64,000 nucleotides of DNA, from NCBI GenBank assembly GCA_026397015.1, contig JAPLVR010000003.1, forward strand, positions 128,001 to 192,000, written 5' to 3'. Shown here in pieces: positions 13,346 through 63,848 of the stretch. The notes beneath the pieces were generated by a model. The model saw only the letters and a list, made by a program, of their open reading frames with translations. It was not told where the DNA came from and ran no database searches. Numbering within the stretch: the first letter of the stretch is position 1; every line of letters begins with the position of its first letter. Both the position numbers and the translations under genes were made by a program. This stretch comes from Candidatus Iainarchaeum sp. (GTDB lineage Archaea > Iainarchaeota > Iainarchaeia > Iainarchaeales > JAAZKV01).

Positions 13346-13525
13346 ACAGCCTTTTTCAAAGGCTGGCGAAAAAATCTATCTTCGCTGATGTGGCAAACCC
13401 GAGGTTTGTCACACGTCGCAAAAGCTTTGAGCTTTTGCTTAGTGCTCGATAGATTTTGCTCCGCAAAAGCCCTTTAAAGGCTGACAAAAAATTGTTCACT
13501 TCGCAAACGTGCCTTTGGCACTAAC
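13346..13525 (-). repeat. Structured repeat in the tRNA-Ser leader (ATCGAGC..GCGAAGAT motif plus hairpins)
   Basis: tctatcttcgc...gctcgataga at 13375..13453 encloses two hairpins; agcctttttcaaaggctggcgaaaa lies next to the tRNA. Confidence 0.75.
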
Positions 13526-13579
13526 CAAAAAATTATCAATAAAAGAAATTAAAAAGCGAGGGTGCGGCGCCGGAAAGAA

Positions 13580-14221
13580 TTATTTCAGTTTTTTGAGGGT
13601 TTCCTTCGCTTTCCCAACCTTGCAGACCAGTATAATCGTATCGTCTTCGCGAATTTTCCTTTCCGGTTCGAAATGGTAAGCTCCCTCGGAAAAGGTTGCG
13701 AGCGCAAAGTAATCCTTGTCCCTTACTTCCTCTATCTTTTTCCCGACGGCCTTTGTTTCCTTGGCATGAATTTCGGTCATATCCATTTGGCCCTGGTCGA
13801 GATTGATTAAGTCATAAACTTTCGGGCGCGTTATCATCAATTCCGCGTTTTTCATTGCAAGGTTTTCCATATTTATCGGGAACATTCCAAGCTTCCTCAG
13901 GATCGGCACAGTTTTCTCGGTGGAGGTTCTGACAAAAATTTGCTTAACACCTGCATCGCGCGCATAAAGTGCGACGAGCACATTTGTTTCTTCAACATCT
14001 GTAGCGGCAACAAATACTTCGCACTGGTCAAGCTTTAACTCGTCAAGTGCTTCCGTGTCGCCGTAATCCGCGCTGATTACAATCGCATTGGTTTCGGCGC
14101 TGACTTGGGTGGCTCTCTGCTTTTCCTCAATAAAAAAAGTTACCTTGTTGTTGCTCTGCTGAAGCAGCGCTTTCCCAAGCTCAAGAGCAAATTCGGTCGC
14201 ACCGACAATAACAATCCTCAT
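13580..14221 (-). CDS. trkA: Trk system potassium uptake regulatory subunit
   Basis: RCK N- and C-domains (MRIVIVG, FVAATD..ETN, IREDDTIIL); adjacent to trkH. Confidence 0.88.
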   Translation of the reverse strand: MRIVIVGATEFALELGKALLQQSNNKVTFFIEEKQRATQVSAETNAIVISADYGDTEALDELKLDQCEVFVAATDVEETNVLVALYARDAGVKQIFVRTSTEKTVPILRKLGMFPINMENLAMKNAELMITRPKVYDLINLDQGQMDMTEIHAKETKAVGKKIEEVRDKDYFALATFSEGAYHFEPERKIREDDTIILVCKVGKAKETLKKLK

Positions 14222-14257
14222 CCAACCCGCCCCCCAAAAAAACCTATTTTCCTTAAA

Positions 14258-15718
14258 TCAAATCCTGCTTATCGGCGAAAGGAAGCCCCTTATGAGGACC
14301 AATACAGGAATTATTTCCATCCTTCCTATCAACATATGGAGGCTCAGCAATATTTTTAAAACCGGAGCCATTAGATACCAAGCATCACCGCTGACCATGC
14401 TTAAACCAACGTTTCCTTGTGCTGAGGCAACTGTGAAGACCGATTCAATCACAGGAAACCCGTAAAACATAAAGATAATGCTTCCTGCTAAAAGGAAAAA
14501 TATGTAAAGGCAGATGTATGAAAGGGCGCCGAGAGCTTCCTCTCTCTTCAAAACCTTGTCGCCTATTTTTATCGGGACAATTGCGCCCTTCGGAAGCAGA
14601 GCCTTCAGGATTCCCCTCCTGACCACTTTAATTACTATTAAAATACGCCAAATTTTGAGAGCCCCGCCGGTTGAACCGTAGCATGAACCGGCAATCATCA
14701 ACAAAATTAAGACGACAATAGAAACGCTCGGCAGGGCATTGACCGCGGTCAGCGTGTTTGCTCCCGTCGTGGTAATTGCCGAAATTGCGTAAAAAAATCC
14801 GTCAAAGAAAAGGCTCTTGTTAAAGATAATTAAGTCAAGTGCAATCAGGGCAAAGCCGCCCAGAGTCAAAAGAAAATAAGTTGCAACTTCCGGGTTTGTA
14901 AAAAATTTTTTTATTTTTCCGCTCAAAAGGTCCTTGTGGGAAACAAACCCTATTCCCCCCAAAAGCATCAGGAGGCACATTACCACCAACGCATTTATTC
15001 CGAAAACACCAGGGCCTTGCGAGACGCTTGAAAACCCGCCGGTCGCAAGCGAAGTAAAAGTGTGGAAAACGGAATCGTAAAATGACATTCCAGTTAAAAG
15101 AAATAAAACTGTTCCAAGAACGGTGTAAATCAAATAAATTCCGATAATCATCCGCGCAATTTTTGTGACGCTCACATAAAAATCTTCGTTCCTTCCTTCT
15201 GCAAGGAAAAGTTCGTGTGCGGTTTTCGGGTTCTCATAAAACATAAGGGCCATTACGACAACTCCAAAGCCGCCCGCCCACTGGGTAAAGGCACGCCAAA
15301 AGTTGAGGCTCATAGGCAACTGCTCAGGAAAAGGCACCATTGTAAGACCTGTGGTTGACCATCCGGAAATGCTCTCAAACAAAGCATCAACCCATGAGAT
15401 GTTATGCAAAACAAAAGGAATTGCAGAAATTATCCATATCACAATCCAAACCGCCGCAATTGAAACTAATGCATGCCTGAACTCGCAGGTTTCCGCCTTC
15501 AACAGGCGCCTTACAACAGTAAAAACACCCGTTAGGACGAGCGCCATCAAGCCAAAAATTATTACAAATTTGGTTTCGCCGTAAAAGAGCGCAACAAGCA
15601 TCGGAATAATTATCAGAACGCCGAAGACGCGGAGCATATTGGAAATTATTTGCAAAAGGATAAGCAAATCCTCCAGCTTAAGCTCACTAATCCACGGCAG
15701 CTTCATAAAAACCCACAC
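14258..15718 (-). CDS. trkH: Trk system potassium uptake membrane protein
   Basis: FESISGWSTTG, QWAGGFG, LATGGFS, GSTGG, GNVG, GRMEI. Confidence 0.95.
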   Translation of the reverse strand: MWVFMKLPWISELKLEDLLILLQIISNMLRVFGVLIIIPMLVALFYGETKFVIIFGLMALVLTGVFTVVRRLLKAETCEFRHALVSIAAVWIVIWIISAIPFVLHNISWVDALFESISGWSTTGLTMVPFPEQLPMSLNFWRAFTQWAGGFGVVVMALMFYENPKTAHELFLAEGRNEDFYVSVTKIARMIIGIYLIYTVLGTVLFLLTGMSFYDSVFHTFTSLATGGFSSVSQGPGVFGINALVVMCLLMLLGGIGFVSHKDLLSGKIKKFFTNPEVATYFLLTLGGFALIALDLIIFNKSLFFDGFFYAISAITTTGANTLTAVNALPSVSIVVLILLMIAGSCYGSTGGALKIWRILIVIKVVRRGILKALLPKGAIVPIKIGDKVLKREEALGALSYICLYIFFLLAGSIIFMFYGFPVIESVFTVASAQGNVGLSMVSGDAWYLMAPVLKILLSLHMLIGRMEIIPVLVLIRGFLSPISRI

Positions 15719-15799
15719 AACAAAATCAAAAAATAACTAACCCCACACAAAAAATAAAAATTAAAAATAAAAACAACTAAATGTGCAAATAAATCGCAT

Positions 15800-16321
15800 C
15801 TAAAAATCGCTCGACTGAGACTGCCCTCTTGAAGGGAACTGTTCTTTTTTCTTCAGCTCTTCCATTCTTTTGTCAATCAAATCACGAACTTGCGAAAGGG
15901 TCGCAAACTCGAGCGGATTAATCGAATCAATCACATACTTCAGTTCTTTTACTTCCTCTTTTGTCGCCGTCCTGCCCCTGAAATCCTCGAGCACCATTTC
16001 AAGAGCGGAAACCTTTTCGCTTAAAGCACCCAGTTCCGCGGAAGAAACCCCGCCCTGCGTGCCCTGCATCTGGTTCTCAACAATTTTGTCGCTCAGGGAC
16101 TTTATTTTTTTATTTAAAACGATAAGGTTTCGGCCAAGAATTTTTTCATTTCTTACCAAGTATTTCATTTTTTGGGTTATAAGAAGAATGCTTGAATTGA
16201 GCGCGCGGATGTCGTCGCGTATATTTCCCACGGGCATCTGGCTGCCGGCTGCCTGCGGCGCCATTCCCTGCTGCACCGCCTGCTGCTGTTGGGCGCGCAT
16301 TGCTCTTTCCGGCCTTGGCAC
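15800..16321 (-). CDS. Hypothetical coiled-coil protein
   Basis: ORF track gives 15800..16528, but the upstream part overlaps polB; GTG at 16321 or ATG at 16300 is more plausible; ELKYVIDSINPLEFAT block. Confidence 0.7.
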   Translation of the reverse strand: MPRPERAMRAQQQQAVQQGMAPQAAGSQMPVGNIRDDIRALNSSILLITQKMKYLVRNEKILGRNLIVLNKKIKSLSDKIVENQMQGTQGGVSSAELGALSEKVSALEMVLEDFRGRTATKEEVKELKYVIDSINPLEFATLSQVRDLIDKRMEELKKKEQFPSRGQSQSSDF

Positions 16322-16395
16322 AAAATCACTAACCCGCCAGCGGCAAAAAGCCTTGGCTATTATTAAATAGATATTGATACTTAAAAATGTATTGT

Positions 16396-18909
16396 ATGCC
16401 CAAAGCCGTTTCCGAACATAAAAAAAATTCCAAGGGCGAAAAGGAGCCCGTAAAGGGAAAGGTTGAAATGAAAAAAGGGCTGCTTCTCGACGCAAGTTAT
16501 TTTGACGACGAAGAAAAAGGAAAATCAATAATAAAACTTTTCATCAAAATCGGCAAAAAAGGCGGGAAAAAAAATGCGCCCCGCAGATGGTTTTTCGACA
16601 GCGAATTTAGGCCGCACTTTTTCGTTCTTTCAGGCAAAGCCAATGCGGAAAAAACAATAAAAGAGCTTGAGGGGCTTGAGCTCGGCGACGAAGAAAAGTT
16701 CAGGATTTTCAGGGCTGAAAAAACAAGCCTGCGTGCATGGGGGCGAAATGAAACAAACGCAGTAAAGGTTTCATTCGACAAAGTAAGCCACCTCGTTCAG
16801 GCGAGAAAATTGTTGAAAGATTTGGGCTTTGAAATATTCGAGTATGATGTGCCCTTTGGGAAAAGGTATTTGCTGGACAAAAGATTGAATCCGTGTGGTT
16901 TTGTCGATATTGAATTTGAGCCCGCCTCAAACGAAATAAAAAAAATAACCCCTTCAAATGAAATCGTTGAACCGATGAGGGATATTGAGGCGATTGCATT
17001 TGATTTGGAAACATATTGCGGAAAAAAATTTGCAATAGGCGCGGAGCCGATAATAATGGCTTCCATGGCGGACATGAGGGAAGAACTTGGAAGAGTAATT
17101 TCATACAAAACAAAAAAAGTAAAGGGATTGGAACTGGTTGAGTCGGAGGAAAAAGTGATAAACGAAATCGAAAAAGGGTTGAATGAAGCGGATTTAATTG
17201 TCACCTACAACGGGGATAATTTTGATTTTCATTATGTAAAAGAAAGGGCGAAAAAGCTCGGCGCGGAATTCAAAATCAACGGTGTCGAGCCGCGGATAAT
17301 CAGGAAGGGGCTGGACAATGCGGCAAAACTGAGCGGGGTGCAGCACATCGACTCCTACCAAATAATGCGCTTTCTTCAGCGCACTGGCGCGATTCACATA
17401 GTGAAACTGGACATTGAAAACGTTTCGGAAAAAGTTTTCGGGGAGAAAAAGGAAAAAGTTTATCCTCTTGAGCTGAATGAGGCGTGGGAAAACGGAAAAG
17501 GCTTGGAAAGGATGGTTGATTACAATCTGAAGGATTCAATCGTCGCAATGAAAATTGCGAAAGAGTACCTGCCTTTGTTCATGGAAATTTCCAAACTCAC
17601 CTCACAAACGCTGTTTGATACCACAAGAAGCGCGACTTCCTCAATGGTTGAGGATTTGCTGATGAAGGAAGCGCACCACAAGGGCTTCGTTGCGCCGAAC
17701 AAACCGAACGAATTCGAGGTGCGGGAAAGAATCGAGAACCCGATAAAGGGCGCTTTTGTGAAGGAACCGTTGGTTGGATTGCATGAAAACATCGCGGTTC
17801 TTGATTTCGCCTCGCTTTACCCGAGCATAATTGTTTCGCACAACATCAGCCCCGAAACATTGAATTGCGAACATGAGGAATGCAAAAAAAATGTTTCTCC
17901 CGACGGAACGTGGTTCTGCAAAAAGGAAAAAGGATTGTTTCCGGAAGTTTTGGGAGGGCTGGTGACGGAAAGAATAAAATTGAAAAGGGAATATGGCAGA
18001 AAGAAAGCGGGCGGAGAAGAGGCAAAGGTTTTGTTCTCGAGCCAGTGGGCGCTGAAAATCGTTCTCAATTCCGCTTACGGATATTTGGCGTATCCAAGGG
18101 CGAGGTGGTATTCGAGGGAGTGCGCCTCTGCGATTACAGCATGGGCTAGAAATTATATACACGAAACAATCAGGAAAGCTGGCGAAGCGGATTTTGAAGT
18201 CCTTTATACGGACACAGATTCCACATTCCTCCTAATGAAAAGGAAAACAAAAAGGGATGTTGAAGAATTTGTAGAGAAAATAAATAAGGAACTGCCGGGA
18301 AATATGGAGCTCGAGGTGGACGGATATTATAGAAGGGGGATTTTTGTTACGCGAAGAAAAAAAGAAGGGGGCGTTGCGAAAAAGAGATACGCGCTGATGG
18401 ACGAGAAAGGAAATCTGAAAATAGTCGGCTTTGAGTATGTGAGAAGGGATTGGTGCAACATTGCAAAGGAAACACAGCGCACCGTAATTGACATGGTCCT
18501 GCATGAAGGAGATTCTTCAAAGGCGGCCGATTATGTGAGAAAAGTAATAAAAGATTTGAAGAGCGGAAAAGTTCCGAAGAAAGAGTTGGCAATAATAACA
18601 ATGCTGAAAAGAAAAGTCGACAGTTACGATGCGAAGGAACCGCATGTAAGCGCGGCAAAAAAAGCAATTGCGCAAGGGACGGAAATTGAAGTCGGAACAA
18701 TTCTTTCATATGTAATTACAAAAAACGGGAAAAGCATTTCGGACAGGGCGGAGCTGGAAGAATTTGTGGAAGAAGGAAACTACGATGCGGATTACTACAT
18801 TCAAAACCAGGTTCTGCCTGCTGTGATAAAAATAATGGAAGAATTGGGTTACTCCAAAGAAGATTTGATTCACGGCGGAAAACAGACAGGGTTAAACACT
18901 TGGGGATAA
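16396..18909 (+). CDS. polB: Family B DNA polymerase
   Basis: Exo motifs FDLE, YNGDNFD, YNLKD; pol motifs DFASLYPS, K..LNSAYG, YTDTDS, KKRY; start uncertain (16387/16396/16468). Confidence 0.97.
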   Translation: MPKAVSEHKKNSKGEKEPVKGKVEMKKGLLLDASYFDDEEKGKSIIKLFIKIGKKGGKKNAPRRWFFDSEFRPHFFVLSGKANAEKTIKELEGLELGDEEKFRIFRAEKTSLRAWGRNETNAVKVSFDKVSHLVQARKLLKDLGFEIFEYDVPFGKRYLLDKRLNPCGFVDIEFEPASNEIKKITPSNEIVEPMRDIEAIAFDLETYCGKKFAIGAEPIIMASMADMREELGRVISYKTKKVKGLELVESEEKVINEIEKGLNEADLIVTYNGDNFDFHYVKERAKKLGAEFKINGVEPRIIRKGLDNAAKLSGVQHIDSYQIMRFLQRTGAIHIVKLDIENVSEKVFGEKKEKVYPLELNEAWENGKGLERMVDYNLKDSIVAMKIAKEYLPLFMEISKLTSQTLFDTTRSATSSMVEDLLMKEAHHKGFVAPNKPNEFEVRERIENPIKGAFVKEPLVGLHENIAVLDFASLYPSIIVSHNISPETLNCEHEECKKNVSPDGTWFCKKEKGLFPEVLGGLVTERIKLKREYGRKKAGGEEAKVLFSSQWALKIVLNSAYGYLAYPRARWYSRECASAITAWARNYIHETIRKAGEADFEVLYTDTDSTFLLMKRKTKRDVEEFVEKINKELPGNMELEVDGYYRRGIFVTRRKKEGGVAKKRYALMDEKGNLKIVGFEYVRRDWCNIAKETQRTVIDMVLHEGDSSKAADYVRKVIKDLKSGKVPKKELAIITMLKRKVDSYDAKEPHVSAAKKAIAQGTEIEVGTILSYVITKNGKSISDRAELEEFVEEGNYDADYYIQNQVLPAVIKIMEELGYSKEDLIHGGKQTGLNTWG

Positions 18910-18968
18910 ATTGGAAAAAAAGAAACCACCAACTAAACCTTTTTAATTGTTCTAATCTCAAATCACTA

Positions 18969-19865
18969 ATGGAAGAGGAAGAACTGAAAGCGTACAAAAA
19001 ATCCGCCTTCGCGTGGAAAAAAGCGATTTCATTTGCGAGAAAAAAAGCGAAAGAAGGAAAGCTACTGCTTAAGTTGGCGGAAGAAATCGAAAAATTAATT
19101 AAGGCGGAGGGGGCGGAGCCGGCTTTTCCTGTAAATCTGAGCAGGAACGAGGAAGCCGCGCATTTTACTCCGAAATGGAATGACGCTGAAATTTTGAAGG
19201 AAAGCGATTTGCTTTCAATCGACATTGGAACAAGCGTCGAAGGGTTCATCTGCGACGGCGCAATTTCAATAAATCTGGACAACAAATACGCAAAACAGAT
19301 TGGGGCAACGGAACTCGCACTTGAAAACGGGATAAGCAAAATCGGTTTTGGAAAAAGTGTTGATGATGTTGGAAAAGAAATTGAGCGAACGCTGAAAGAA
19401 AAAGGGCTTAATCCTGTTTACAATCTCGGCGGGCACGGCCTCGCGCAATACGACATTCATGGGGAACCAAGCGTGCCAAACCACTCAAGCGGAAACGAAG
19501 CGAAATTTGAAGAAGGAGTTATCGCAATCGAACCTTTCTCATCAACGGGGGATGGATTCGTGGGCGAAACTCCTGCGGTGGAAATTTTTGCGGAGCTGGA
19601 AGGCGCGAAAACGAGAAACATCTATGCGAGAAAACTACTTGAATTTGTGAAAAAGTATGAGGGATTGCCGTTCGCGGAACGCTGGATAAGAAAAGAAAGC
19701 AGGCTGAACGAATTTCAGGCAAGCGTCGGATTAAGGGATTTGATGAAAAATGGCTGCTTTGAAACATTCCCGGGATTAAAAGAAGCAAAGGGCGGAATCA
19801 TTGCACAGGCGGAGAAAACGGTAATCGTGCTTGAAGGGGAAGCAATTGTTCTCGGAGAAAAGTGA
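18969..19865 (+). CDS. map: Type II methionine aminopeptidase
   Basis: AFPVNLS.N..AAH, IDIG, DGA, GGHG, IEPF, AQAEKT; start MEEEE at 18969. Confidence 0.95.
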   Translation: MEEEELKAYKKSAFAWKKAISFARKKAKEGKLLLKLAEEIEKLIKAEGAEPAFPVNLSRNEEAAHFTPKWNDAEILKESDLLSIDIGTSVEGFICDGAISINLDNKYAKQIGATELALENGISKIGFGKSVDDVGKEIERTLKEKGLNPVYNLGGHGLAQYDIHGEPSVPNHSSGNEAKFEEGVIAIEPFSSTGDGFVGETPAVEIFAELEGAKTRNIYARKLLEFVKKYEGLPFAERWIRKESRLNEFQASVGLRDLMKNGCFETFPGLKEAKGGIIAQAEKTVIVLEGEAIVLGEK

Positions 19866-19884
19866 CAAAACTATTGTTTTACCA

Positions 19885-20080
19885 CAACTTTTTCGCCAAT
19901 TTTTTTGTCAGTTTTTTCCCAAAAGGTCATTCCCCACAAGTTTTTGCCAACCTTTTCCCAAAAAGCTCTGCAAAGCCTTTTCGCCAGCAATTTTTCGCCA
20001 GCCTTTTTAATAAAAAGGCTGTGCCAAGGGCTTTTTTTCGCCGGTCGTTTTTCGCCGGCCTTTTTAGGAAAAAGGCCGAG
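19885..20080. repeat. Cluster of degenerate and intact TTTTCGCC/hairpin repeats
   Basis: Multiple tttttcgcc units; hairpins agcctttttaataaaaaggct and ggcctttttaggaaaaaggcc. Confidence 0.8.
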
Positions 20081-20161
20081 AGGAAGATTTATTAAAAGAG
20101 AAAGCGGTTATTTTATCGCTTCTATATGTAGTGGCATTAACAGTGTTTCCGGTGCGGTTGA

Positions 20162-26947: not shown

Positions 26948-27024
26948 GACAGGCACTTTTTTACGGCACTGCCCTGGAAACCTTTAAAATAGCAAATCAA
27001 CACAAAAAATGCTGAAGAGCATTT

Positions 27025-27096
27025 GCTCCTATGGTGTAGTGGATAGCATATCAGCTTGCGGAGCTGGCGGCCCGTGTTCGACTCACGGTAGGAGCG
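27025..27096 (+). tRNA. tRNA-Arg(GCG)
   Basis: GCTCCTA/TAGGAGC, TCAGC-TTGCGGA-GCTGG, GTTCGACTC. Confidence 0.93.
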
Positions 27097-27256
27097 TGGC
27101 CTTTTTAATAAAAAGGCCAGCGAAAAAAATATTAGCAAAAAAGTCTATCTTCACTGAAGCCTTTAATAAAGGCTTGCGAAAAATGCGACCTTCGGTCGCG
27201 TGCTCGATAGACTAAGCTTCGCAACAGCCTTTTTAAAAAAAAGACTGGCGAAAAAA
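27097..27256 (-). repeat. Structured repeat abutting the tRNA-Arg 3' end
   Basis: ggcctttttaataaaaaggccagcgaaaa; gtctatcttcac...gtgctcgatagac at 27143..27212. Confidence 0.8.
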
Positions 27257-29747: not shown

Positions 29748-29802
29748 GGCACATCGAGCAAAGCGAAGATGGGCCTTTTCGCCGGCCTTTGAAAAAGGCC
29801 GT
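29748..29802 (+). repeat. Structured repeat in the tRNA-Met leader
   Basis: catcgagcaaagcgaagatg followed by ttttcgccggcctttgaaaaaggccg. Confidence 0.8.
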
Positions 29803-29875
29803 GCCACTGTAGATTAGCAGCCAAATCGCCTGACTCATAATCAGGAGATCGGCGGTGCGAACCCGCCCAGTGGCA
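29803..29875 (+). tRNA. tRNA-Met(CAT), elongator-type, atypical D- and T-loops
   Basis: GCCACTG/CAGTGGC-A, CCTGA-CTCATAA-TCAGG; T-loop TGCGAAC. Confidence 0.9.
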
Positions 29876-29905
29876 TTTTTATTTTTATAATTTGCAACCC
29901 CTTTT

Positions 29906-34447: not shown

Positions 34448-34589
34448 CCGGCTGCTCTTTGCGGAGCAGGGCTTACCAAGCGAAGCGAAGGTGGGCAATT
34501 CGGCCGGTTTTTTTTAAAAGGCTTGTACGAAGCATGATTCATCGAGCATCAGTGAAGATGAATCTTTTCGCCGGCCTTTCTAAAAGGCC
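34448..34589 (+). repeat. Structured repeat in the tRNA-Glu leader
   Basis: gattcatcgagcatcagtgaagatgaatc at 34536..34564 followed by ttttcgccggcctttctaaaaggcc; variant motif at 34471..34496. Confidence 0.8.
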
Positions 34590-34662
34590 GCCCCGATAGT
34601 GTAGCGGTCAAGCACTCCACCCTCTCACGGTGGAAACTCGGGTTCGAGTCCCGATCGGGGTA
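34590..34662 (+). tRNA. tRNA-Glu(CTC); integration site
   Basis: GCCCCGA/TCGGGGT, CCACC-CTCTCAC-GGTGG, GGTTCGAGTCC. Confidence 0.95.
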
Positions 34663-34762: not shown

Positions 34763-35932
34763 ATGGTAGATTTGTACAATAACAAGGCGAGGTATGCCCG
34801 AAAAAAAAAAGAACTAATTGATGAGTTCGAGGGCGAAATAAAAGAAATTTTGAAAAAGTACGTTGCCCTGCATGACTCAAAATTTGAACGCGAACAAATG
34901 GCTTACGGCTCTGCCTTACGAAGCCTTGAAACCGCACGGGACATTTCCAGTTGGAAAGATATATTTTCAGAGAAACCTTACTCAGTTGAAGCGGCTAAAG
35001 AATGGTGGAAGCACCAATTAGTAAGACCAAGTCAGAAGAGCAAACAAAAGCTGACCATTAGTACCTTGGAAAAGGCACAAGGGCAAGCGTCAAAATTTTT
35101 CAAATTCCTTGAATTCCTAGAAACTGAAAACGACATTGCTTTTTTTAACACTCAAAAATTACCTCCTGCAAAAGCCAGCAGGTATTTTATCGTGGAAATA
35201 CCAAAAAAACAAAAAGAAATCCCCCGCCTCAACCTAACTAAATTTATTGAGGTGTTTCATACTTTGACAAAATCCCCCATGTATTACGAACGGCTTGCAG
35301 GAATTCTGTTCATTGCTGCTTATGATTTGGGTTGCCGGTTTGGCGAACTCGCTTCACTAAAGAACAAGAGTTTTCAAGTGGTTGAAGGGCAACTGCTAAT
35401 TAACTTGGAGGACTCAAAAACCAAGACGAGAACCGTTGTCCCAATCTTGTCAAAAAAATACTTAATTAATTGGCAATCCATGTCGCCAACTCGCGATGAC
35501 CCCGAAGGATACTTCTTTTGTGACCGAAAGGGCAGCTTTGTTCCTTATGACAAGGTCAGTATGGCTTTGAAAGAAGCGTGTGCTAAGGTCGGTTTTGAAT
35601 TTCCAGGATGCAAATTATGGCATTACCTTCGCCACGAATTTGCTTCTCGGGCCTACCAAATGCCAGAAAATCTAATTAGGTATTACCTTGGTTGGAGTGA
35701 TGGAAGCATTAGAGCAGTTTATTCGCACAATAATTGGAAGGAGTGCTTGCCATACCTTCACAAAATGAACGAGGGGCACCCATTGCTTGATGAGCCTTTA
35801 TCCGTACTTGAAAAAGAAGAAACAAACAAATTTGAGAGCCAGCTCGAGCAATTGATAGAGAGCAAAGTTGTTGAATGGTTAAGAAACAATCAAAAAAACG
35901 GAGGTGATTTACATGAAGAAATACAAATTTAG
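34763..35932 (+). CDS. Tyrosine recombinase/integrase
   Basis: GCRFGEL, SKT, HYLRH, LGW, VY catalytic set. Confidence 0.92.
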   Translation: MVDLYNNKARYARKKKELIDEFEGEIKEILKKYVALHDSKFEREQMAYGSALRSLETARDISSWKDIFSEKPYSVEAAKEWWKHQLVRPSQKSKQKLTISTLEKAQGQASKFFKFLEFLETENDIAFFNTQKLPPAKASRYFIVEIPKKQKEIPRLNLTKFIEVFHTLTKSPMYYERLAGILFIAAYDLGCRFGELASLKNKSFQVVEGQLLINLEDSKTKTRTVVPILSKKYLINWQSMSPTRDDPEGYFFCDRKGSFVPYDKVSMALKEACAKVGFEFPGCKLWHYLRHEFASRAYQMPENLIRYYLGWSDGSIRAVYSHNNWKECLPYLHKMNEGHPLLDEPLSVLEKEETNKFESQLEQLIESKVVEWLRNNQKNGGDLHEEIQI

Positions 35933-54737: not shown

Positions 54738-54784
54738 GCAATAAATTTATATTATTCGTCGGTTCTTAATGATTACGAGGCTTC

Positions 54785-54819
54785 CGTGCCGGTCGGGGGT
54801 TCGAATCCCTCCCGAGGCT
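54785..54819 (+). pseudogene. Orphan tRNA 3' half (Thr-like)
   Basis: CGTGC CGGTC GGGGG TTCGAAT CCCTC CCGAGGC T; no matching 5' half adjacent. Confidence 0.65.
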
Positions 54820-54832
54820 TTTTGTGATTTCG

Positions 54833-55177
54833 ATGCCGTTTAAAAGAAAAATCCCCGCGATAAATCAGGGGCAAGAAAAAATTTGGGAACTTAATTTTGC
54901 AAGCGGAAAAGGCGCGCAGGGGATTGCTTACGCTGAAATAAAAGAAAGCAATTCCCACTACCACAAAAAAATCACAGAACACTACTTCATATCGGGCGGC
55001 AGCGGAACAATAACAATAGACGGCAACATTGCGAAGGTTGGAAAAGGAGATTTAATTACAATAAAGCCAAACCAAGTTCATTCTGCAAAGGGCGGCTTTT
55101 TAGAGAAATTGGAAGTAGTTGTAATAAGCAGTCCCGCGTGGAAAAAGGAAGACCATTTTGTGGCCAAAAAAGGCTAG
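54833..55177 (+). CDS. Cupin-domain protein
   Basis: HYH...E.Y....G.G and GD...I.P...H. Confidence 0.85.
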   Translation: MPFKRKIPAINQGQEKIWELNFASGKGAQGIAYAEIKESNSHYHKKITEHYFISGGSGTITIDGNIAKVGKGDLITIKPNQVHSAKGGFLEKLEVVVISSPAWKKEDHFVAKKG

Positions 55178-55246
55178 AAAAAGTCGGCAAATTTTCAACC
55201 AAAAGAAAGCCTTTTATACTTCTGCAAGGGAATTATTTAGGTTCTT

Positions 55247-55441
55247 ATGGCTGAGAAAAGAGAGTCGAGGGAAATTCTTATAGGAATGGCTTCGCTGCTG
55301 GCCGGAAGCTATTTTGTGCTTTCCGGAATGGAAGTCATAGATATTCCATTCAGAATTTTTGAACAGGGGCTGAGCATTTTGCTTTCCGTTCTTTTGGTCG
55401 GGATAGGAGTTTACCTGCTTACAAAAAACACAAACAAATAG
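55247..55441 (+). CDS. Small two-TM protein
   Basis: 64 aa, two hydrophobic helices. Confidence 0.65.
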   Translation: MAEKRESREILIGMASLLAGSYFVLSGMEVIDIPFRIFEQGLSILLSVLLVGIGVYLLTKNTNK

Positions 55442-55517
55442 GCTCTGAAGGGAATTTTTTTATAAAAACCATTCGGGCAAAATTTCTTTTTCGCCAAACC
55501 CTATTTTTCTTCGAAAA

Positions 55518-58500: not shown

Positions 58501-61043
58501 GTTGTAATGTGCGAAAGCCCATCAATAACATCAATAATTTCACTTTTTCCGAATTCATTGGTTTCTTCCAAATCATCAAGCGCATCCGTTGCCGAATTCA
58601 AGCTTTCAGTTGCCGCTTCCAAATTTGCTATTGTTTCTTCGTGTGCGCCCTTTGCCATTTCCAAATATTTTTTAGCATCCGCATCATCGCTTGATGCAGA
58701 GTAGAAAGCATCAATTGCAGCAGCTTCCAATGCTTTTTGGGCATAATTTACAGCATTTTTGGAACTTTCAACTGCCGCATTGGCGGATTCCAACGAAGCC
58801 TTTGCAAATTCTAATGTTTCATCCGCACTTGCTTTTCCGTCCCCCTCAGACAATGTCATCACTGAATCTACTGCTTGCATCATGCTCGTAACACTATCAA
58901 GAATTAACAAAAAACCTTCAAAATAACTTATTTCATATGCGGTTTTTGCAGTGACATATGAAGAAGCGACTTTGCCAGCAGCTGGAATTGCAATCAGTGT
59001 GCCGGCTGTTGCAGCAGATGGCCCACAAACCGAACCTGCAATAGCCGCCGCAGTTACAGAAGCAACGTACATGTTTACTGCATAATCCCCTCCAGTGAAC
59101 AATCCCCAGTTCACAACACAAACAGCTCCTTGAGCGGTTAACTCCGTAAGCGCCAATGTTAACTGAACTGTCGCAACCGTCTTCCCGTAATCCGTTCCTT
59201 CCCCAAATGAATCAACTGCAGCTTGCGCAGCATCGACAGCGGATTGCGCGGCATCTTTTACTTTGAGGGCTTCCTCATGAGCTTTTATTGAATCCAAATA
59301 AGCTTTTTTTATCAAAGCATTTCGCGGAGCGGAAAACGCCTGCGCCGTTGCGCGCGCCTCATCAATTTGCTTCAGAGTTTCTGTCAGGGACGCCTGATAT
59401 TTTCCGACGCCTGCTTCTTTTCCTAAGTTGTTCCACCAGCCGCTTCCACCGGTGGAAGTGTCTTTTGATGTGCTTGAACTATTTACATCAGTAGAACCGC
59501 TTCCGCCTGAATTTGAATCAGCGGACAATGCTTCGCCTGCATTTGCATAAATGTCGCAGATGCTTGCATTCACATGAACGTCTTCCGCAAGAGTCGGGTT
59601 GGAGACGCGAATGGAATCTTTCGTGCCATTTCCAAGCAGAGAAATCACAAACTTATCGGGCTTAAGCATCTCATCGCTTGGCTCAACAAAAACTTCTTTT
59701 TCCGCAATGAATGCTTTTTTGTAGCCGACAATGTTTGCGTGAACTGTTAAGCCGTAAACGCCCGGAATTTCTCCTTTTGTAATCATAATTGTTTTTTTGG
59801 AATTGCCGCGGGGGGAAAGGCTGAATGAAGCCGGAGAAATGTCAATTGAGCCCTCGCTCGCGCCGCCGGTGCACCCATCATCGCCGTCGCAGATATAGAA
59901 CGCTATTGAGTCGGAGCTGCAGGCGGAAGCGTCAATTGTAATTTCCGCGCTTTCTTCGCCCTTCGGAATAACTAATTCTGATTTTGAAAACTTTACGCAC
60001 TGCTCTAAATTGTCCAATGCAACATCAAAATTAATTCCGACTCCGTTTTGGTCCGAGCCGAACATCACCGAAAAATTTGCTTTCTGCCCCGCATACTCGA
60101 CAAAAGGGGTAAAAATTATTTTTGCGGGGTAATCGCTTTTCGTAGCGGAATTTGTTAAAAGCGCCGGAGAAAGGGAGAGCGTTCTTCCCATTAATTCTCC
60201 TTTCTTATCCGCCATAACCACCTCGACTGTCCCCATTTGTTTGCTGTTCCATTTTACGTAAGCATTCAAATCCGCCTTTGTGTCGCAACTTACTTTAAGT
60301 TTGAAATCCGTTTCGAGCATTCCGAAGGGAGTTGATTCTCTCACCGAACTTTTGTTGAGCGCGAGGCAGCCGTTTGAAAAGTAATCTTTTATTGTCACGT
60401 GGACAGGAATCGTTATTATTGTTGTTTCATTCGTATCGGGATTGAGAACGGTAATTAGAACATTGACATCGTATTCTCCGGGCGGCAATCCTTCGGGAGG
60501 AAAGAGGTCAAAGGAAATCCTTCCATTCGCATCCACAGCAGCATTTTCAACCAGCCACACTATTTTGCCGTCGGTGCTTTTTCCCTCCGCCTTAACTATT
60601 ATTGAATTTGGGGAAACCAGCGGCTCGCCCTTGATGCGCAGGGAAACTCTTGCGGAGGAATCGCCTGAAACCATAACTGCTTCCAACGGCGGGCCTTTTG
60701 AATTAATTGTTTTGTCTGCCTTTCCGTCCTGGAAATGCTGAATCGTTCCGGCAACATCATTTCCTGAGTCGTCGGTAAACGAGTATGCACCCGAACCGGA
60801 AAAATTTCCCGGATTCATTAAAACGAGCAAAATTATTATTGCGACAACGATTGCAACAGGAACGATAAGCTGATTTCTTTTATCTTCCAAAAAAAATTCT
60901 AACTTGGTCAAAAGCCCTTCCTTTTCCGCGCTTTCTTCCTCTTCATCGCCGTAAAAAGAGGGTTTGTATTCTCTGGGCGAATAGTCTTCTTCAATGTCAC
61001 CATAATAACTATCAGAACCCTTTGAGCGCTTTTTTGAAGCCAT
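55518..61043 (-). CDS. Giant membrane-anchored putative surface protein (paralog C) with large Ala-rich helical insert
   Basis: ORF track extends to 61079; likely start MASKK at 61043; N-terminal TM; collinear with paralog A apart from a 620-aa insert. Confidence 0.88.
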   Translation of the reverse strand: MASKKRSKGSDSYYGDIEEDYSPREYKPSFYGDEEEESAEKEGLLTKLEFFLEDKRNQLIVPVAIVVAIIILLVLMNPGNFSGSGAYSFTDDSGNDVAGTIQHFQDGKADKTINSKGPPLEAVMVSGDSSARVSLRIKGEPLVSPNSIIVKAEGKSTDGKIVWLVENAAVDANGRISFDLFPPEGLPPGEYDVNVLITVLNPDTNETTIITIPVHVTIKDYFSNGCLALNKSSVRESTPFGMLETDFKLKVSCDTKADLNAYVKWNSKQMGTVEVVMADKKGELMGRTLSLSPALLTNSATKSDYPAKIIFTPFVEYAGQKANFSVMFGSDQNGVGINFDVALDNLEQCVKFSKSELVIPKGEESAEITIDASACSSDSIAFYICDGDDGCTGGASEGSIDISPASFSLSPRGNSKKTIMITKGEIPGVYGLTVHANIVGYKKAFIAEKEVFVEPSDEMLKPDKFVISLLGNGTKDSIRVSNPTLAEDVHVNASICDIYANAGEALSADSNSGGSGSTDVNSSSTSKDTSTGGSGWWNNLGKEAGVGKYQASLTETLKQIDEARATAQAFSAPRNALIKKAYLDSIKAHEEALKVKDAAQSAVDAAQAAVDSFGEGTDYGKTVATVQLTLALTELTAQGAVCVVNWGLFTGGDYAVNMYVASVTAAAIAGSVCGPSAATAGTLIAIPAAGKVASSYVTAKTAYEISYFEGFLLILDSVTSMMQAVDSVMTLSEGDGKASADETLEFAKASLESANAAVESSKNAVNYAQKALEAAAIDAFYSASSDDADAKKYLEMAKGAHEETIANLEAATESLNSATDALDDLEETNEFGKSEIIDVIDGLSHITTVLYVARLSELYTAHTAIGSAQAEMVVATGTGGITVIATECLKCSGDEKCAAAYAKCLLITGVGGSDPALRTKLASISSGLTLEMVTSTLDILVTAGDVFAVFLNMMKDTGADIDGAKSAYESTISTYGDVIDVQQKAIDSLDAAIIAAGELSNDEKASSDAATYSSANFADSSYNKKRLAGLIASAVSHGYIAGAYEGGVYTTADTGTALTGTGTGLNTGNIGTSSQTNKFNSNKILLAGDSGSSDSTSAEDEAANFTEGLNKSFTQDCANRIDLGLTDYVINLVKDGKPIGVSNEGVGATWSFSDAKMFDVFEKQEVGVIFSNNGLVKNGYGTVTLNATKHIHGPLAESTDGNGADSSTSSSTEGDDSGLTVTTVKEKPKSSGNEEGGEIVKIDGQPFGPFNIPDASTETVSKKFHFKFNAAPRVEAATGLKLGSCSNGLTRGAEGKDALPNINLSWKWDGFDDSKYLDAAQMSIVLSKKLTAFDEALKSISASCPPNPSLEVLQIVKPSEYLPKDLPKCYLPLTTRLYDGKPALYYFVSGNADEFEKILNFNVKLMKDGFGTKFQQDFTKEYTTKILLSHPSFTDSDKGMAKYFRGANCYYSSEAAGFSASDRFVVPDAGEYSVRLLADLKDTGLFSSGAPSAKIIFQLYPVKPINDSFSVFYYSPFDGAVGMESSTDVIPEDGNVYDANSPGVADQNSPGTDKNGIVVVGGVSKRDGYGFGISGGNDDYFNVDNKGSIIESGSTALLNIPYRNAKSLFEINSLNSMRGKLFDYKYAYNPKGGTDANSYITFAPSFATPLIVSTHANSGEKAQLLYKPMRDSKDINSTSPGFLLLTGIGNGKCRDFSGTSAAKNYFLYPDSKFGGYYGLKFDEAVQGGDIYFKTIIYSPVSESYSIQPIQGTSLHTLQGSNANSAPLKGIGGMVFNDETNNSRIFSLEDLFDAVKQGDVCISNMGNRAMLFWNEGSLSTADASNGHSLSSREDSLSAGCIK

Positions 61044-61194
61044 TTTTCCCACTGAAAACCCGCAATTTTGCCGCAACAATTATTCAAAAACCTGCAACCT
61101 CGCTGTAACTATTATATGCAATCTTGCTATAACTATTATTTCTCTTTCATATATATATGCATGTTGTTCTGCGGAATTCATTAATTCAAACGCA

Positions 61195-62166
61195 TTAATC
61201 CCTTTCAATTATTTTGGTTTTAAAGCGGCTTTTCCTTTTTTTCAGCAAAACAATTCTTGACTCCTTTTTTTCTGATTCATATGCATAGGAAGGCATCTTT
61301 TCGAGCAGCTGTTCCGAATATGCTTTCACCTCGGAGTGGGAAGGCATTGCCTCGTACTTCAGGCGGCGCCTTGAAAAGCCGAGATTCATATACGCTTTAA
61401 CCTCGATGAAATCGCTTTGAACGGCTTCCAAAACTTCCGCAAATTCGCACAATGTTTCCTCGGAATAATTCAATTCTTTTATGAGTGTTAGGCGGATAAC
61501 CGTTCTGCACGGAAGCAGTTTCAGAAGCGCGAGAGATTTCAAATAATTTTTCCAGCCGTTTTTTTCGGTGTTGCATGTGATTTTTCTGTAAAGCCCTTTA
61601 TTTGGAGCCGCTATGGAAATGTAAAGCTGGGTCGGGAGGGAATTTTTTTCCCACAACTGGAAAAGCATTTTTGGGTTTTGGCCGTTTGAAACCAAAAAAA
61701 CCGTTTCTGTTTTTGGTCTTTTTTTCAAAAGTGAAATCAGCTGGGGAAGTTTTTTGTAAAGGGTGGGTTCGCCGCTCAAAGAAATCGCCCAGTGTTTTTC
61801 CTCCATCGCTTCGTCATATCTTTTTCTTGCAGAAGCGCCGCTGCTTTTGAATCCGCTGATAAGAATTTTTCTTTCTTCAATCAACCCTTCAATCATTTTT
61901 TCCGGAGAGAGCGGAGAAGGGGGTTTGCCTCGCATATATTCCATCGGGCGCCAGCAAAAGACACAGGAATTGTTGCACCACAAAGCACTCGGAGTAATCT
62001 GGTGGCAGCTGATGCAGTGCGCGCCGTAAAAGTCCTGCTTGTAGCAGTGCCCCTTGCCCCTGAGCGCTTTCTTGTTCCACTCGCACACCTGAATTGCGGC
62101 ATCGCCGTTGCCGAAGAAACGGTACTGCTTTTTCCTGAACTCCCTTAAAAGACTTTCCTTGTTCAT
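61195..62166 (-). CDS. taw1: 4-demethylwyosine synthase (radical SAM, TYW1/Taw1)
   Basis: CYKQDFYG, CHQITP, CNNSCVFCWR, ISLSGEP, EVKAYM..G.SR. Confidence 0.93.
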   Translation of the reverse strand: MNKESLLREFRKKQYRFFGNGDAAIQVCEWNKKALRGKGHCYKQDFYGAHCISCHQITPSALWCNNSCVFCWRPMEYMRGKPPSPLSPEKMIEGLIEERKILISGFKSSGASARKRYDEAMEEKHWAISLSGEPTLYKKLPQLISLLKKRPKTETVFLVSNGQNPKMLFQLWEKNSLPTQLYISIAAPNKGLYRKITCNTEKNGWKNYLKSLALLKLLPCRTVIRLTLIKELNYSEETLCEFAEVLEAVQSDFIEVKAYMNLGFSRRRLKYEAMPSHSEVKAYSEQLLEKMPSYAYESEKKESRIVLLKKRKSRFKTKIIERD

Positions 62167-62269
62167 TGAAATTATTGGAGTGAGGAGTTTTTTTAAACAG
62201 GAATTTTTTTAAACAAAACAGGCATTACTTCTAACAGCAAATATAAATCTGAGACAAAGGGTGAAAAAA

Positions 62270-62707
62270 ATGGAGGGTTCAATACAATTCATTTCGAATT
62301 ACGAGGATTGGAAGGCAATAAAAAAAATAAAGATAACAGGGCAAACTAATCCGAGAACGGTTGCGGAGTTTCTTGCTGGCCTTTCAACGAGCCTTGATTC
62401 GAAAGTAGAATCAAATTTAAGAAAAATAGTCGCGCTCGACAAGCTGGACGCGGCGGTAAAAGAACTTGCATTCGGAAAAGGGGATTCGGCAAGGGCGCTT
62501 GAAGAAATCAATTCGAGAAAAATTTCTGCCGTAATAAACGAAATTATTGAGCTTCCAAATTTGCAGGCGAATGAAAAAAAGGAATTGCAGCAATTCTGCA
62601 GGGTTTATGCGACAAAAAAGGCCCTGAAAGAATGCGGGCTCATGGTTGATTATTCGGAAATCGATATTCCCGGAATGAAAAGGCTCAAGAAAAAAAAAGT
62701 TGAATAG
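62270..62707 (+). CDS. Conserved archaeal hypothetical protein (DUF2666-like)
   Basis: IQF...Y.DW...KK.KI...P..VAEFLA; family call is from memory. Confidence 0.55.
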   Translation: MEGSIQFISNYEDWKAIKKIKITGQTNPRTVAEFLAGLSTSLDSKVESNLRKIVALDKLDAAVKELAFGKGDSARALEEINSRKISAVINEIIELPNLQANEKKELQQFCRVYATKKALKECGLMVDYSEIDIPGMKRLKKKKVE

Positions 62708-62791
62708 GTTAGAAAAAACCCTATAAATTAAAATAGGTTAGAAAAAACCCGATAAATTAAAATAGGTTAGAAAAAAATCCAATAAAAATAA
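62703..62791. repeat. 29-bp tandem repeat, three copies
   Basis: aataggttagaaaaaaccc(t/g)ataaattaa at 62703 and 62732; degenerate copy at 62761. Confidence 0.85.
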
Positions 62792-62843
62792 TATCAAACA
62801 AAAATATCAAATAAAAATTCATCTGAGAAAAAAAGTGCTGTAA

Positions 62844-63680
62844 ATGTTCGACGAAATAATTGCCAACCAAATTTTGCAGGGATTCATGAGCCCCGCGCTT
62901 ACCTTATTTTTTCAAATAGTGACTTTCTTCGGCCACCCGATAATTTGGTTCGTTGCGGCTGCATGGCTTTTCTGGCTCGGAAAGGAAAAAAGAAGCGCAA
63001 TACTGGTTTCGCTTATCGTGGCGGTCGCAGTAATTTCAACCGGGGTTAAAACGCTGATTGCGAGGCCGCGGCCGGCGGGAATTGAAATACTTGAAATGCA
63101 GGACACGACCTATTCGATGCCCTCAAGCCACGCCGCAATAGGCGGGGCGATGTACGCGTTCTTTGAAAAAAAATTGGTCGGAAAATTAAAACCTCTTCAG
63201 GCACTCCTTCTCGCGGCAATAATTCTGATAGCGATTTCAAGAATCTATTTGGGCGTCCACTTCCTCAGCGACGCAATTGTCGGGCTTTTTTTGGGTTACA
63301 TCATTGCAAAGGCGGTTCTGATTTACGAAGAAAGAATGGTAAAAATAAATCTGGTAAAACTTGTCAAGATGGAATGGCCTTTCCTCCTTTCAATAATTTT
63401 CATCGCATCCATTCTTCTGATTCAACTGCTTCCGAGCGCCCTTTACGAGGCACAGACGCTTCTCGGGTATTATTTTGGTTTTATACTTCACAAACAGGGG
63501 CACAAAATATACGACGCAAAAAACAGGCCCCTAATACTTTTAATCGGAACCGCACTTCTTGCAGCAATCGGCTTTTTCGCGTATGAAATCGGGGGAATAG
63601 TCGGCGCTGTGCTATTCTTCACCGCCGGATTATTTGTAACGTTCATCTGGCCGTTTGCTTACTCAAAGTTGAAGCTTTAA
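62844..63680 (+). CDS. PAP2-family membrane phosphatase
   Basis: K.LIARPRP, PSSH, SRIYLGVH...D. Confidence 0.9.
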   Translation: MFDEIIANQILQGFMSPALTLFFQIVTFFGHPIIWFVAAAWLFWLGKEKRSAILVSLIVAVAVISTGVKTLIARPRPAGIEILEMQDTTYSMPSSHAAIGGAMYAFFEKKLVGKLKPLQALLLAAIILIAISRIYLGVHFLSDAIVGLFLGYIIAKAVLIYEERMVKINLVKLVKMEWPFLLSIIFIASILLIQLLPSALYEAQTLLGYYFGFILHKQGHKIYDAKNRPLILLIGTALLAAIGFFAYEIGGIVGAVLFFTAGLFVTFIWPFAYSKLKL

Positions 63681-63848
63681 CCGGCTTCAAAAGTCAAGGA
63701 TAAAACTTTAAAAACAAAGCAGCAACTAATTATAGGGTTTTGTCCGCAAAGCGGAGAACCAATTGTTTGTGGCAGTTGCATTTGCGAAGTATGCTGCATC
63801 GAGCGAAAGCGAAGATGCTGCTCAGATGCCAACTGGCTGCAGCAGTTG

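Follow-up and report, generated by a model that had tools for sequence, protein, structure and literature searches.

In a 64,000-nucleotide stretch of a Candidatus Iainarchaeum contig (hereafter the window), five tRNA genes are accompanied by a short imperfect hairpin with a GA/GAA purine loop, and the locus raises the question of what this motif is and how it came to lie beside tRNAs. The original prediction had placed six copies here, and reading the sequence directly we found all of them at their positions (Table 1), including the AA variant, whose ACC-AA...GAA-GGT form also occurs in two relatives (loci L088 and L117). The strict pattern ATCGAGC-N(1-30)-GYGAAGAT matched the plus strand of the window three times, compared to 0.02 matches expected (100 shuffles, none of which reached three), and a wider regular expression run on the genome picked up both minus-strand long forms (13378-13450 and 27147-27208). 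As had been claimed, four of the five copies are sense in tRNA leaders: ARAGORN and Rfam placed tRNA-Ser, tRNA-Met and tRNA-Glu immediately 3' of hairpin copies on the same strand, and tRNA-Tyr follows from 63849. The long copy at 27147-27208 on the minus strand faces the 3' end of the plus-strand tRNA-Arg. Minimum-free-energy (MFE) folds gave the stem, 2x3 loop and GC stem for two of the three short copies and one of the two long forms; the MFE z-scores of the five window copies were -3.6, -2.7, -0.9, -6.2 and -5.4.

Table 1. Hairpins, second domains and adjoining tRNA genes in the 64-kb window.
Feature	Position	Strand	Remarks
Further second-domain repeat copy near tRNA-Ser	13194-13222		
Stand-alone second-domain repeat	13235-13260	+	Adjoins tRNA-Ser 3' end, inward-pointing
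tRNA-Ser(cga)	13260-13346	-	
Second domain: U-run, CGCC, GC-clamped hairpin, A/T-rich loop	13347-13371	-	Adjoins tRNA-Ser(cga) 5' end
Long-form GA/GAA hairpin	13370-13458	-	Outer stem and loop as in short copies; two extra hairpins in apex; MFE fold exactly the proposed structure, z = -6.2
tRNA-Arg(gcg)	27024-27097	+	
Second-domain repeat	27097-27125	-	Adjoins tRNA-Arg(gcg) 3' end, inward-pointing
Long-form GA/GAA hairpin	27139-27216	-	38.7 bits, z = -5.4; faces tRNA-Arg 3' end
Nested second-domain repeat	27157-27181		In apex of the 27139-27216 long form
Short GA/GAA hairpin	29748-29775	+	Covariance model 54.4 bits
Second domain: UUUUCGCC and GGCC hairpin	29777-29801	+	Adjoins tRNA-Met (29802-29876); GAAAA of hairpin loop can pair with the U-run
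Variant hairpin ACC-AA-GC-gaa-GC-GAA-GGT	34471-34496	+	
Short GA/GAA hairpin	34536-34564	+	8-bp outer stem, inner-stem G·U pair; 59.6 bits, z = -3.6
Second domain	34566-34590	+	Adjoins tRNA-Glu(ctc) at 34590-34662
Short GA/GAA hairpin	63791-63823	+	U·U mismatch, outer GC clamp; 55.2 bits
Second domain, CAACUG/CAGUUG type	63824-63848	+	Putative H-type pseudoknot; adjoins tRNA-Tyr
tRNA-Tyr	from 63849		Cut by window end

A stem maintained through compensatory change

The hairpin (domain 1) comprises an outer stem, an invariant internal loop of 5'-GA and 3'-GAA, a GC stem of 2 bp and a variable apex in which large inserts are tolerated; within the outer stem, a G-C/C-G clamp is usually followed by a U·U mismatch and then by a 5-bp stem. 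Among the 16 copies of the own-genome set, 82.8% of the cells were paired and 6 of the 12 pairs changed on both sides, with slid controls at 29-43%. A larger alignment of 95 matches (94 distinct) bore out the covariation that had been proposed, as 83.1% of the cells were paired (26-47% in slid controls) and 11 of the 12 pairs changed on both sides, with the qualification that alignment A2 was fitted to the structure of the covariance model, which favours pairing. The stem structure is maintained through compensatory change and the purine loop is confined to one strand. Over the 95 copies, GA and GAA were each conserved in 92-95 and the U·U mismatch in 63, and a conserved GCA stands immediately 5' of the stem. 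In the ten core pairs we tallied from the alignment table 15 G·U-type against 7 A·C-type combinations on the sense strand. The opposed purines would most likely form tandem sheared G·A pairs with one extra A.

A covariance model (R1) was built and run on related genomes, where it found copies in 43 of 101 at E<=0.01, and it detected about 19 (18-20) in the 0.9-Mb genome of the window itself; phylum-wide, 49 of 151 genomes carried copies at E<=0.001. The own genome (G000), its congener G001 and three further genomes (G005, G013 and G084) hold 9-18 copies each. No Rfam family matched the motif: a gathering-threshold scan of the window with Rfam 15 returned tRNAs only, and a scan of ten loci at E<=1 gave only tRNA or tRNA-like matches, on the tRNAs themselves, and no ribozyme family. 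The hairpin is an uncatalogued, deeply conserved purine-loop RNA motif, and the element that contains it appears to be specific to the Iainarchaeota (DPANN).

Insertion of a two-hairpin unit at many sites

The idea of a structured motif without a known family stood as far as single-strand structure, covariation and the Rfam searches are concerned, but the hairpin is merely the 5' half of a ~62-nt unit, with a second hairpin 3' of it that ends 31-36 nt after the GAA in 105 of 108 unique copies. This second domain of ~26 nt varies in sequence from copy to copy and includes a GGCC type with 4-6 T residues 3' of the first hairpin and a CAACUG type without the U-run; about 40 second-domain repeats stand alone. 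Pairing of its loop with the linker can give rise to a putative H-type pseudoknot. Linker-loop complementarity averaged 3.61 versus 2.88 +/- 0.10 in 1000 permutations, a test inflated by related copies, and no more than 39 of 87 copies had a pseudoknot helix of at least 4 bp.

Exact flanking direct repeats of at least 12 nt, with lengths of 13-40 nt, were found for 13 of 83 copies compared to 1 of 83 in the control, which identifies those copies as insertions; the remaining 70 had no flanking repeat, so that most copies could be old or of other origin. The downstream repeat begins 32-35 nt after the GAA in the clear cases, while 8-55 nt separate the upstream repeat from the GA core, giving the unit a constant 3' end and a variable 5' end. 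At locus L097, for example, a 62-nt insert is framed by a 40-nt repeat, and similarly clean insertions were seen at L038, L115, L111, L024, L035, L042 and L046. The inserted DNA is 62-130 nt long and non-coding, and some copies are nested. At duplicated tRNA sites the unit is flanked by the intact tRNA and, on its opposite side, by a partial copy of it, and non-tRNA targets (ORF ends, UTRs and sRNAs) were duplicated too. The unit has therefore inserted at many sites with target duplications of 13-40 nt. Turnover is visible at tRNA-Val, which carries different unit variants in the own genome (L002) and in the congener (L083). Stems differ among copies of one genome, unlike in a recent MITE burst, which argues for a function in place or for conversion between copies.

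The tRNA leader, where the motif had been noticed, proved to be one landing place among several. Domain 2 adjoined a tRNA 5' end in sense orientation in 21 of 88 copies and a tRNA 3' end in antisense orientation in 7, and domain 1 adjoined a tRNA end in a single copy; these counts are lower bounds because ARAGORN missed at least the tRNA-Met of the window in this survey. The spacing from GAA to tRNA position +1 is fixed at 32-36 nt. Nine copies lie inside anticodon-loop introns predicted by ARAGORN, which calls their insertion points at positions between 34 and 40; eight of the nine are antisense, and three of the introns (63, 66 and 69 nt) match the reverse complement of the unit almost exactly. 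In position, these copies resemble the bulge-helix-bulge tRNA introns of archaea, which are not known to derive from any dispersed repeat that flanks tRNA ends too. Other copies were found in a C/D sRNA loop, beside C/D sRNAs, in four l7ae leaders, at ORF ends and in ordinary 5' UTRs. Surviving copies have domain 2 flush with the ends of stable-RNA coding segments. Tyrosine integrases lie next to two unit-bearing tRNAs, and RNase P RNA, which could remove leaders, is present.

Our preferred reading, to which we give a probability of roughly 0.5, is that a ~62-nt, two-domain insertion element specific to the Iainarchaeota carries the motif as its conserved 5' hairpin.

Kink-turns, mobile elements and other readings

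The purine loop could also be read as a cis-acting RNA element only, namely a K-turn-like L7Ae site in pre-tRNAs, sRNAs and l7ae leaders that couples L7Ae-dependent RNP maturation (RNase P substrates, C/D sRNAs, l7ae mRNA) to L7Ae supply, with the duplications being by-products of tRNA-locus rearrangement and not of mobility. Archaeal l7ae autoregulation through a 5'-leader k-turn is established (Daume 2017, PMC5539422; Huang 2019, PMC6298567), and tandem G·A is the part of the k-turn read by L7Ae. In line with this, the own l7ae leader holds one copy 48 nt before the ATG (gene at G000:C5:281773 onward), three l7ae leaders of relatives hold one as well, copies lie next to tRNAs and within or beside C/D sRNAs, and compensatory change conserves the structure. 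Like K-turns and K-loops, the hairpin has opposed GA dinucleotides by a short, loop-capped GC helix, its apex tolerates insertions, and it occurs at similar sites (l7ae leader, C/D sRNAs, beside RNase P substrates). Unlike a K-turn, it lacks the 3-nt bulge that separates the capped helix from the G·A pairs; its 2 x 3 loop instead carries one extra A 3' of the GA, and we rejected a standard kink-turn for this reason. A register with GAA as the bulge was also rejected, since the next two bases, a GA on which the G·A pairs would then depend, covary as Watson-Crick pairs (C-G to U-A in three copies, U-A to C-G in five) and pairing is 26% instead of 83% when the partner is slid by +2. Moreover, only 4 of 30 l7ae leaders contain the hairpin, and nearly all leaders of sufficient length retain a distinct C/D-box-like motif together with UUGA beside the SD (judged by eye, uncounted), which is the likelier candidate for the autoregulatory k-turn. 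The antisense copies at tRNA 3' ends and in introns mean that the host transcript there bears the pyrimidine complement, and target-duplicated copies at ORF ends and in ordinary 5' UTRs also speak against a purely cis-acting role, which we consider unlikely.

With regard to mobility, a single-stranded DNA transposable element of the IS200/IS605-PATE or REP/RAYT kind, in which a HUH/Y1 enzyme acting in trans would recognise the imperfect hairpin with its T·T mismatch and purine loop, is improbable. The strand-specific structure (the G·U-type excess), the conserved stem mismatches, a hairpin at each end of the unit without terminal inverted repeats, and one Y1 transposase gene ~400 nt from a copy in genome G025 would all fit. 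However, Y1 transposase (PF01797), TnpB and reverse transcriptase (RT; PF00078) were not found in the own genome (85% complete), PF01797 was not found in the other four copy-rich genomes either, and RT was not found in the genomes with most copies. Among the 101 relatives, RT was present in 17 and Y1 transposase in 25, and neither tracked copy number. IS200/IS605 elements and REPs are not known to duplicate their targets on insertion, as the unit does, and domain 2 with its variable sequence would be a poor protein target. We therefore rejected membership of the IS200/IS605-derived PATE or REP/RAYT groups. MITEs end in inverted repeats and duplicate a short target of fixed length, and a classical MITE was likewise rejected, given that the two ends of the unit are different hairpins and the duplications vary in length. 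The unit does resemble MITEs, REP/BIME, the Correia elements of Neisseria and the palindromic elements of Rickettsia as a short, hairpin-forming multicopy family in intergenic regions, leaders and tolerated gene loops, with nested copies and putative co-transcription with neighbours. It differs from them in lacking terminal inverted repeats and an identified partner transposase, in its long variable duplications, in its strict polarity toward RNA-gene boundaries and in stems that covary round an invariant purine loop. No described REP family matched by name, as the original prediction required; the behaviour of the element is nevertheless REP/MITE-like. Duplications of variable length together with a constant 3' end are as in TPRT-type retroposons, and the putatively structured RNA and the copies beside tRNA genes recall SINE-like retroposition, but the unit has neither A-tail nor tRNA-derived body, and the pattern of RT genes given above does not supply the host enzyme. 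The partial and intact tRNAs flanking the unit and the nearby integrases are also reminiscent of att-site duplication and of the tRNA gene disruption model of Sugahara 2012 (PMC3293823). Unlike tRNA-targeting integrative elements, the unit is very short, encodes nothing and also duplicates non-tRNA targets.

It is highly improbable that the copies are independent tiny sRNA genes of ~35 nt (~85 nt for the long forms) with their own TATA-like box and a U-run end. A/T-rich TATA-like boxes that precede the ATC by ~26 nt in many copies (by eye), the GCA right 5' of the stem and the T residues of the GGCC class would agree with such genes, but the CAACUG-type copies have no U-run and T6 runs are not avoided within long ORFs (476 in 494 kb), so they would be poor terminators in this genome. 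Furthermore, the U-run class leaves the tRNA without promoter room because the second domain adjoins it, and the insertion unit takes in domain 2. The fixed distance from GAA to tRNA +1 could point to a DNA-level promoter or operator element, or to a small self-cleaving ribozyme freeing the tRNA 5' end, and GA...GAA around a short GC stem resembles the stem-II junction of the hammerhead ribozyme. Covarying stems of differing sequence argue against a protein site on duplex DNA, though, and in the CAACUG class the region at -26 from the tRNA does not look like a TATA box; as for a ribozyme, the element is a two-way and not a three-way junction without the rest of the hammerhead core, the ten loci gave no ribozyme match, and RNase P RNA is present. 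We regard both possibilities as extremely improbable.

Proposed persistence at RNA boundaries and a possible route for the arrival of tRNA introns

If the motif belongs to an insertion element, the unit would be transcribed, with its ends and processing likewise predicted, and copies may persist where the cell removes or tolerates them. RNase P would remove those in 5' leaders and the splicing endonuclease those in introns, and 3' trailers and apical loops would be further such places. On this view the GA/GAA hairpin would be a protein-binding platform on the transcribed strand, either as RNA or as single-stranded DNA during spread, with an L7Ae-type protein as no more than a tentative candidate partner. 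It is also conceivable, albeit rather doubtful, that the 62-nt leader RNA released by RNase P is itself the mobile intermediate and the source of new tRNA introns. The unit would then be the exact RNase P product, from near the transcription start past the GA/GAA hairpin to tRNA position -1. Copying of this structured RNA would begin at its constant 3' end and use nicks at the edges of RNA-coding segments, which would account for the variable target duplications, the 5'-shortened copies (the stand-alone second-domain repeats) and the strict polarity.

In this family one dispersed unit bears insertion signatures beside tRNA ends and also makes up three tRNA introns in full, so that intron gain can be tested by comparing filled with empty sites; introns of this phylum are unusually long. 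How archaeal tRNA introns arrive is still regarded as an open question, and a 2026 Asgard census found 'no general route'. If a freed leader were the intermediate, its landing in an anticodon loop would create a new spliceable tRNA intron and provide a concrete, testable route of intron arrival. The hairpin would lend itself readily to binding experiments with proteins of the L7Ae family, and it would serve as an annotation marker for Iainarchaeota leaders, on which tRNA finders and Rfam are silent.

Distribution and structure of the GA/GAA hairpin

Inspection of the window sequence located every site named in the original prediction, and four of the copies do precede, on the same strand, the genes for tRNA-Ser, tRNA-Met, tRNA-Glu and tRNA-Tyr, the fifth being directed at the 3' end of tRNA-Arg. 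A strict pattern for the hairpin, i.e. an outer stem, a 5'-GA opposite a 3'-GAA internal loop, a 2-bp GC stem and a variable apex, matched three times in the window (0.02 expected), and the two minus-strand long forms were recovered with a wider regular expression. The genome sequence (898,628 bp, six contigs, the window being C5:128001-192000) contains 16 short copies and three long forms of this non-coding element, with a sense copy upstream of 13 of the 37 tRNA genes called by ARAGORN. When the 16 short copies were used to train a covariance model, a check suggested in the original prediction, the model matched 18-20 places in this genome. At E<=0.01 it also hit 43 of the 101 relatives, 27 of the 37 same-family genomes among them, and at E<=0.001 it hit 49 genomes of a phylum-wide sample of 151, almost all of them from a single order.

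Scanning 185,579 species genomes with a 20-base pattern returned 42 loci. Archaeal records accounted for 36 of these, many titled Candidatus Iainarchaeum or Diapherotrites and including Ca. Iainarchaeum andersonii SCGC AAA011-E11, and the family flank pattern was seen at all 36. The six bacterial loci had neither stems nor flank pattern, fit chance and were left out of the second-domain analyses. A viral origin was also rejected: the 81 pattern matches among the IMG/VR loci listed (at least 118 stretches; L162-L241) were chance-like, three having partial stems and none the family pattern. No description of the motif or element was found in the literature searched, a limited full-text collection.

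Within 95 aligned hits (94 distinct) fitted to the covariance model, 83.1% of cells were paired and both-side changes occurred at 11 of 12 pairs, whereas slid controls were only 26-47% paired; an independent MAFFT alignment of the 16 copies gave the same pairing picture. From the outside inwards, the consensus comprises a G-C/C-G clamp, a U·U (63/95), five pairs, the 5'-GA opposite 3'-GAA (92-95/95), G-C/C-G and an apex formed by either a 3-5-nt loop or large inserts. Together with the purine loop, the excess of G·U-type over A·C-type mismatches in the ten core pairs (15 versus 7, tallied from the alignment table) suggests that the listed strand would be the one that folds.

The two-domain unit and its genomic contexts

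The GA/GAA hairpin is the first domain of a unit of ~62 nt. A second hairpin, its end 31-36 nt beyond GAA, was present in 105 of the 108 unique copies considered, all free of N, with at least 40 nt downstream and without the six bacterial loci. Complementarity between hairpin loop and linker averaged 3.61 as compared with 2.88 +/- 0.10 in permuted pairings, and a loop-linker helix of at least 4 bp was found in 39 of 87 copies versus 19 +/- 3.6 after permutation, with matched changes including UUCG/CGAA, UCCG/CGGA, CCCAG/CUGGG and CUCAA/UUGAG. An H-type pseudoknot of second domain and linker is plausible, and is unproven because related copies inflate the complementarity test.

Also dispersed in the genome is another family of repeats, in which TTTTCGCC leads into a GC-clamped hairpin whose loop is of the T-run/A-run type; roughly 40 canonical copies were read from a noisy 252-row list (coordinates in the table). 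It adjoins about 10 tRNA 5' ends and 7 tRNA 3' ends, always oriented inward, and in many units it also serves as second domain. The genome has an RNase P RNA, within which there is a copy of this hairpin-plus-GCGAAAA repeat, apparently situated in a peripheral helix. In 10 of the 16 own copies a conserved box, TTGCGAAGCA, precedes the hairpin by about 8-14 nt; it falls outside the minimal inserted unit. The sequence GCGAAGC forms a very stable DNA mini-hairpin.

Among the 88 hits with a regular-expression core (7 of the 95 are without one), 21 have the second domain in sense against the 5' end of a tRNA and 7 have it in antisense against a tRNA 3' end; in one hit it is the first domain that adjoins a tRNA end. 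Predicted introns hold eight antisense and one sense copies, and 50 hits have no ARAGORN tRNA nearby, the relatives being annotated by ARAGORN only and many contexts being unnamed. These tRNA-context counts are lower bounds, since two tRNAs of the window, tRNA-Met and the truncated tRNA-Tyr, escaped ARAGORN. The reverse-complemented unit accounts almost exactly for three introns, which measure 63, 66 and 69 nt. At one locus called as tRNA-SeC, the exons, by eye, fit tRNA-Gly(UCC), its intron of 91-96 nt being one complete unit in reverse complement, and the counterpart in the congener G001 is called Gly(tcc). ARAGORN predicts introns in 12 of the 37 tRNA genes, 11 of them 58-148 nt in length, which is unusually long for archaea. 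A leader-trailer processing stem around tRNAs was rejected, as matching flanks occur at tRNA-Ser(cga) only.

Coordinates of the unit, related repeats and neighbouring genes (G000, own genome; C, contig; L, individual locus inspected)
Feature	Location	Remarks
Second repeat family	window 13194-13222, 13235-13260, 19993-20021, 20050-20078, 27097-27125, 27225-27253	about 35 more in G000
Hairpin-plus-GCGAAAA repeat	L077 about 1616-1650 (G000:C6)	RNase P RNA gene, 76951-77220
Conserved upstream box	window 34522-34531	example
Unit in C/D sRNA	L043	D'-C' loop
Unit at C/D sRNAs	L035, L024	3' flank
Unit at ORF ends and in UTRs	L042, L115, L111, L097	
Unit as tRNA intron, reverse-complemented	L119, L094, L021	intron almost exactly the unit
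tRNA gene called tRNA-SeC	G000:C1:177553-177719 (L003)	
tRNA-Ala to 23S rRNA spacer	L079 2950-3330 (G000:C6)	small open reading frame seems present
Sister symmetric-loop hairpin	G000:C1:170630-170640; C2:39040-39050; C5:204275-204285	
Sister symmetric-loop hairpin	L010 about 180-200	l7ae leader, immediately upstream of GA/GAA hairpin
C/D-box-like motif of l7ae leaders	L047-L076	about 100 to 10 nt ahead of l7ae start codons
Tyrosine integrase	window about 35309-35734 (G000:C5:163309-163734)	just downstream of tRNA-Glu(ctc), unit upstream of tRNA
Tyrosine integrase	G000:C3:120396-120893	just downstream of tRNA-Ser(gct), unit upstream of tRNA
Tandem arrays in relatives	L034 1380-1620; L023 1417-1552	adjoining N runs

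Insertion signatures and mobilising genes

Exact matches of 12 bases or more between the upstream flank and the sequence beginning 32-35 nt after GAA were present in 13 of 83 testable copies, compared with one of 83 in a reversed-flank control. These flanking repeats measure 13-40 nt; sites that have them include L097, L115, L111 and L038, and at L097 a 62-nt insert, starting at the first stem base, is bracketed by a 40-nt repeat. The 3' edge of the unit is constant and its 5' edge varies (8 to 55 nt), and the tRNA-Val leaders of the own genome and of G001 carry different unit variants. Some relatives contain tandem arrays of a tRNA or sRNA 3' fragment plus unit, which could be genuine arrays or assembly effects.

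Three tyrosine integrases are present, two of which adjoin unit-bearing tRNAs and are likely integrated elements. The own genome, which is 85% complete, yielded no Y1 transposase, TnpB or RT, and among the 101 relatives neither RT (17/101) nor Y1 transposase (25/101) was associated with unit copy number. To an HUH-type ssDNA element we give a smaller weight.

Kink-turns, transcription and the preferred reading

The GA/GAA internal loop recalls a k-turn, and units occur in the l7ae leader at 4 of 30 loci, two of them truncated. A Kt-7-like register would make GAA the bulge and place the GA that follows in G·A pairs. It fails because both bases of that GA covary with Watson-Crick partners in the 5' arm; the outer stem pairs Watson-Crick and the closing pairs covary. 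Unlike l7ae-UTR k-turns, which have a 3-nt bulge (PMC6298567), the hairpin has a tandem GA plus one A without such a bulge and is for this reason not classed as a k-turn. A fixed, L7Ae-linked leader element appears unlikely to us. Some units are preceded by a sister hairpin whose loop is symmetric (CC-GA-GC-AAA-GC-GA-GG) and whose register would suit a K-loop better than that of the GA/GAA form. By eye, almost every one of the 30 l7ae leaders of sufficient length shows a C/D-box-like GCC-RAUGA-N-CUGAUG with UUGA right before the GGAGG Shine-Dalgarno, which would be the likelier canonical autoregulatory k-turn of this family.

One unit copy is probably transcribed in sense because it is located between the 16S rRNA and tRNA-Ala genes; the spacer between tRNA-Ala and 23S rRNA measures about 800 nt and has an apparent ORF, which may mean that this locus is not a single simple operon. 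The U-run was rejected as a terminator: T6 runs are common within ORFs, and it therefore need not stop transcription. Independent sRNA genes are given a smaller weight, as is a promoter or ribozyme element; the sequence at -26 of the tRNA was not TATA-like in one class (judged by eye), and a hammerhead or other ribozyme was rejected, the element being a two-way junction with no Rfam match. The reading that we prefer, with a probability of about one half, is that of a mobile two-hairpin unit that would persist where processing removes or tolerates it and whose functional core would be the GA/GAA hairpin.
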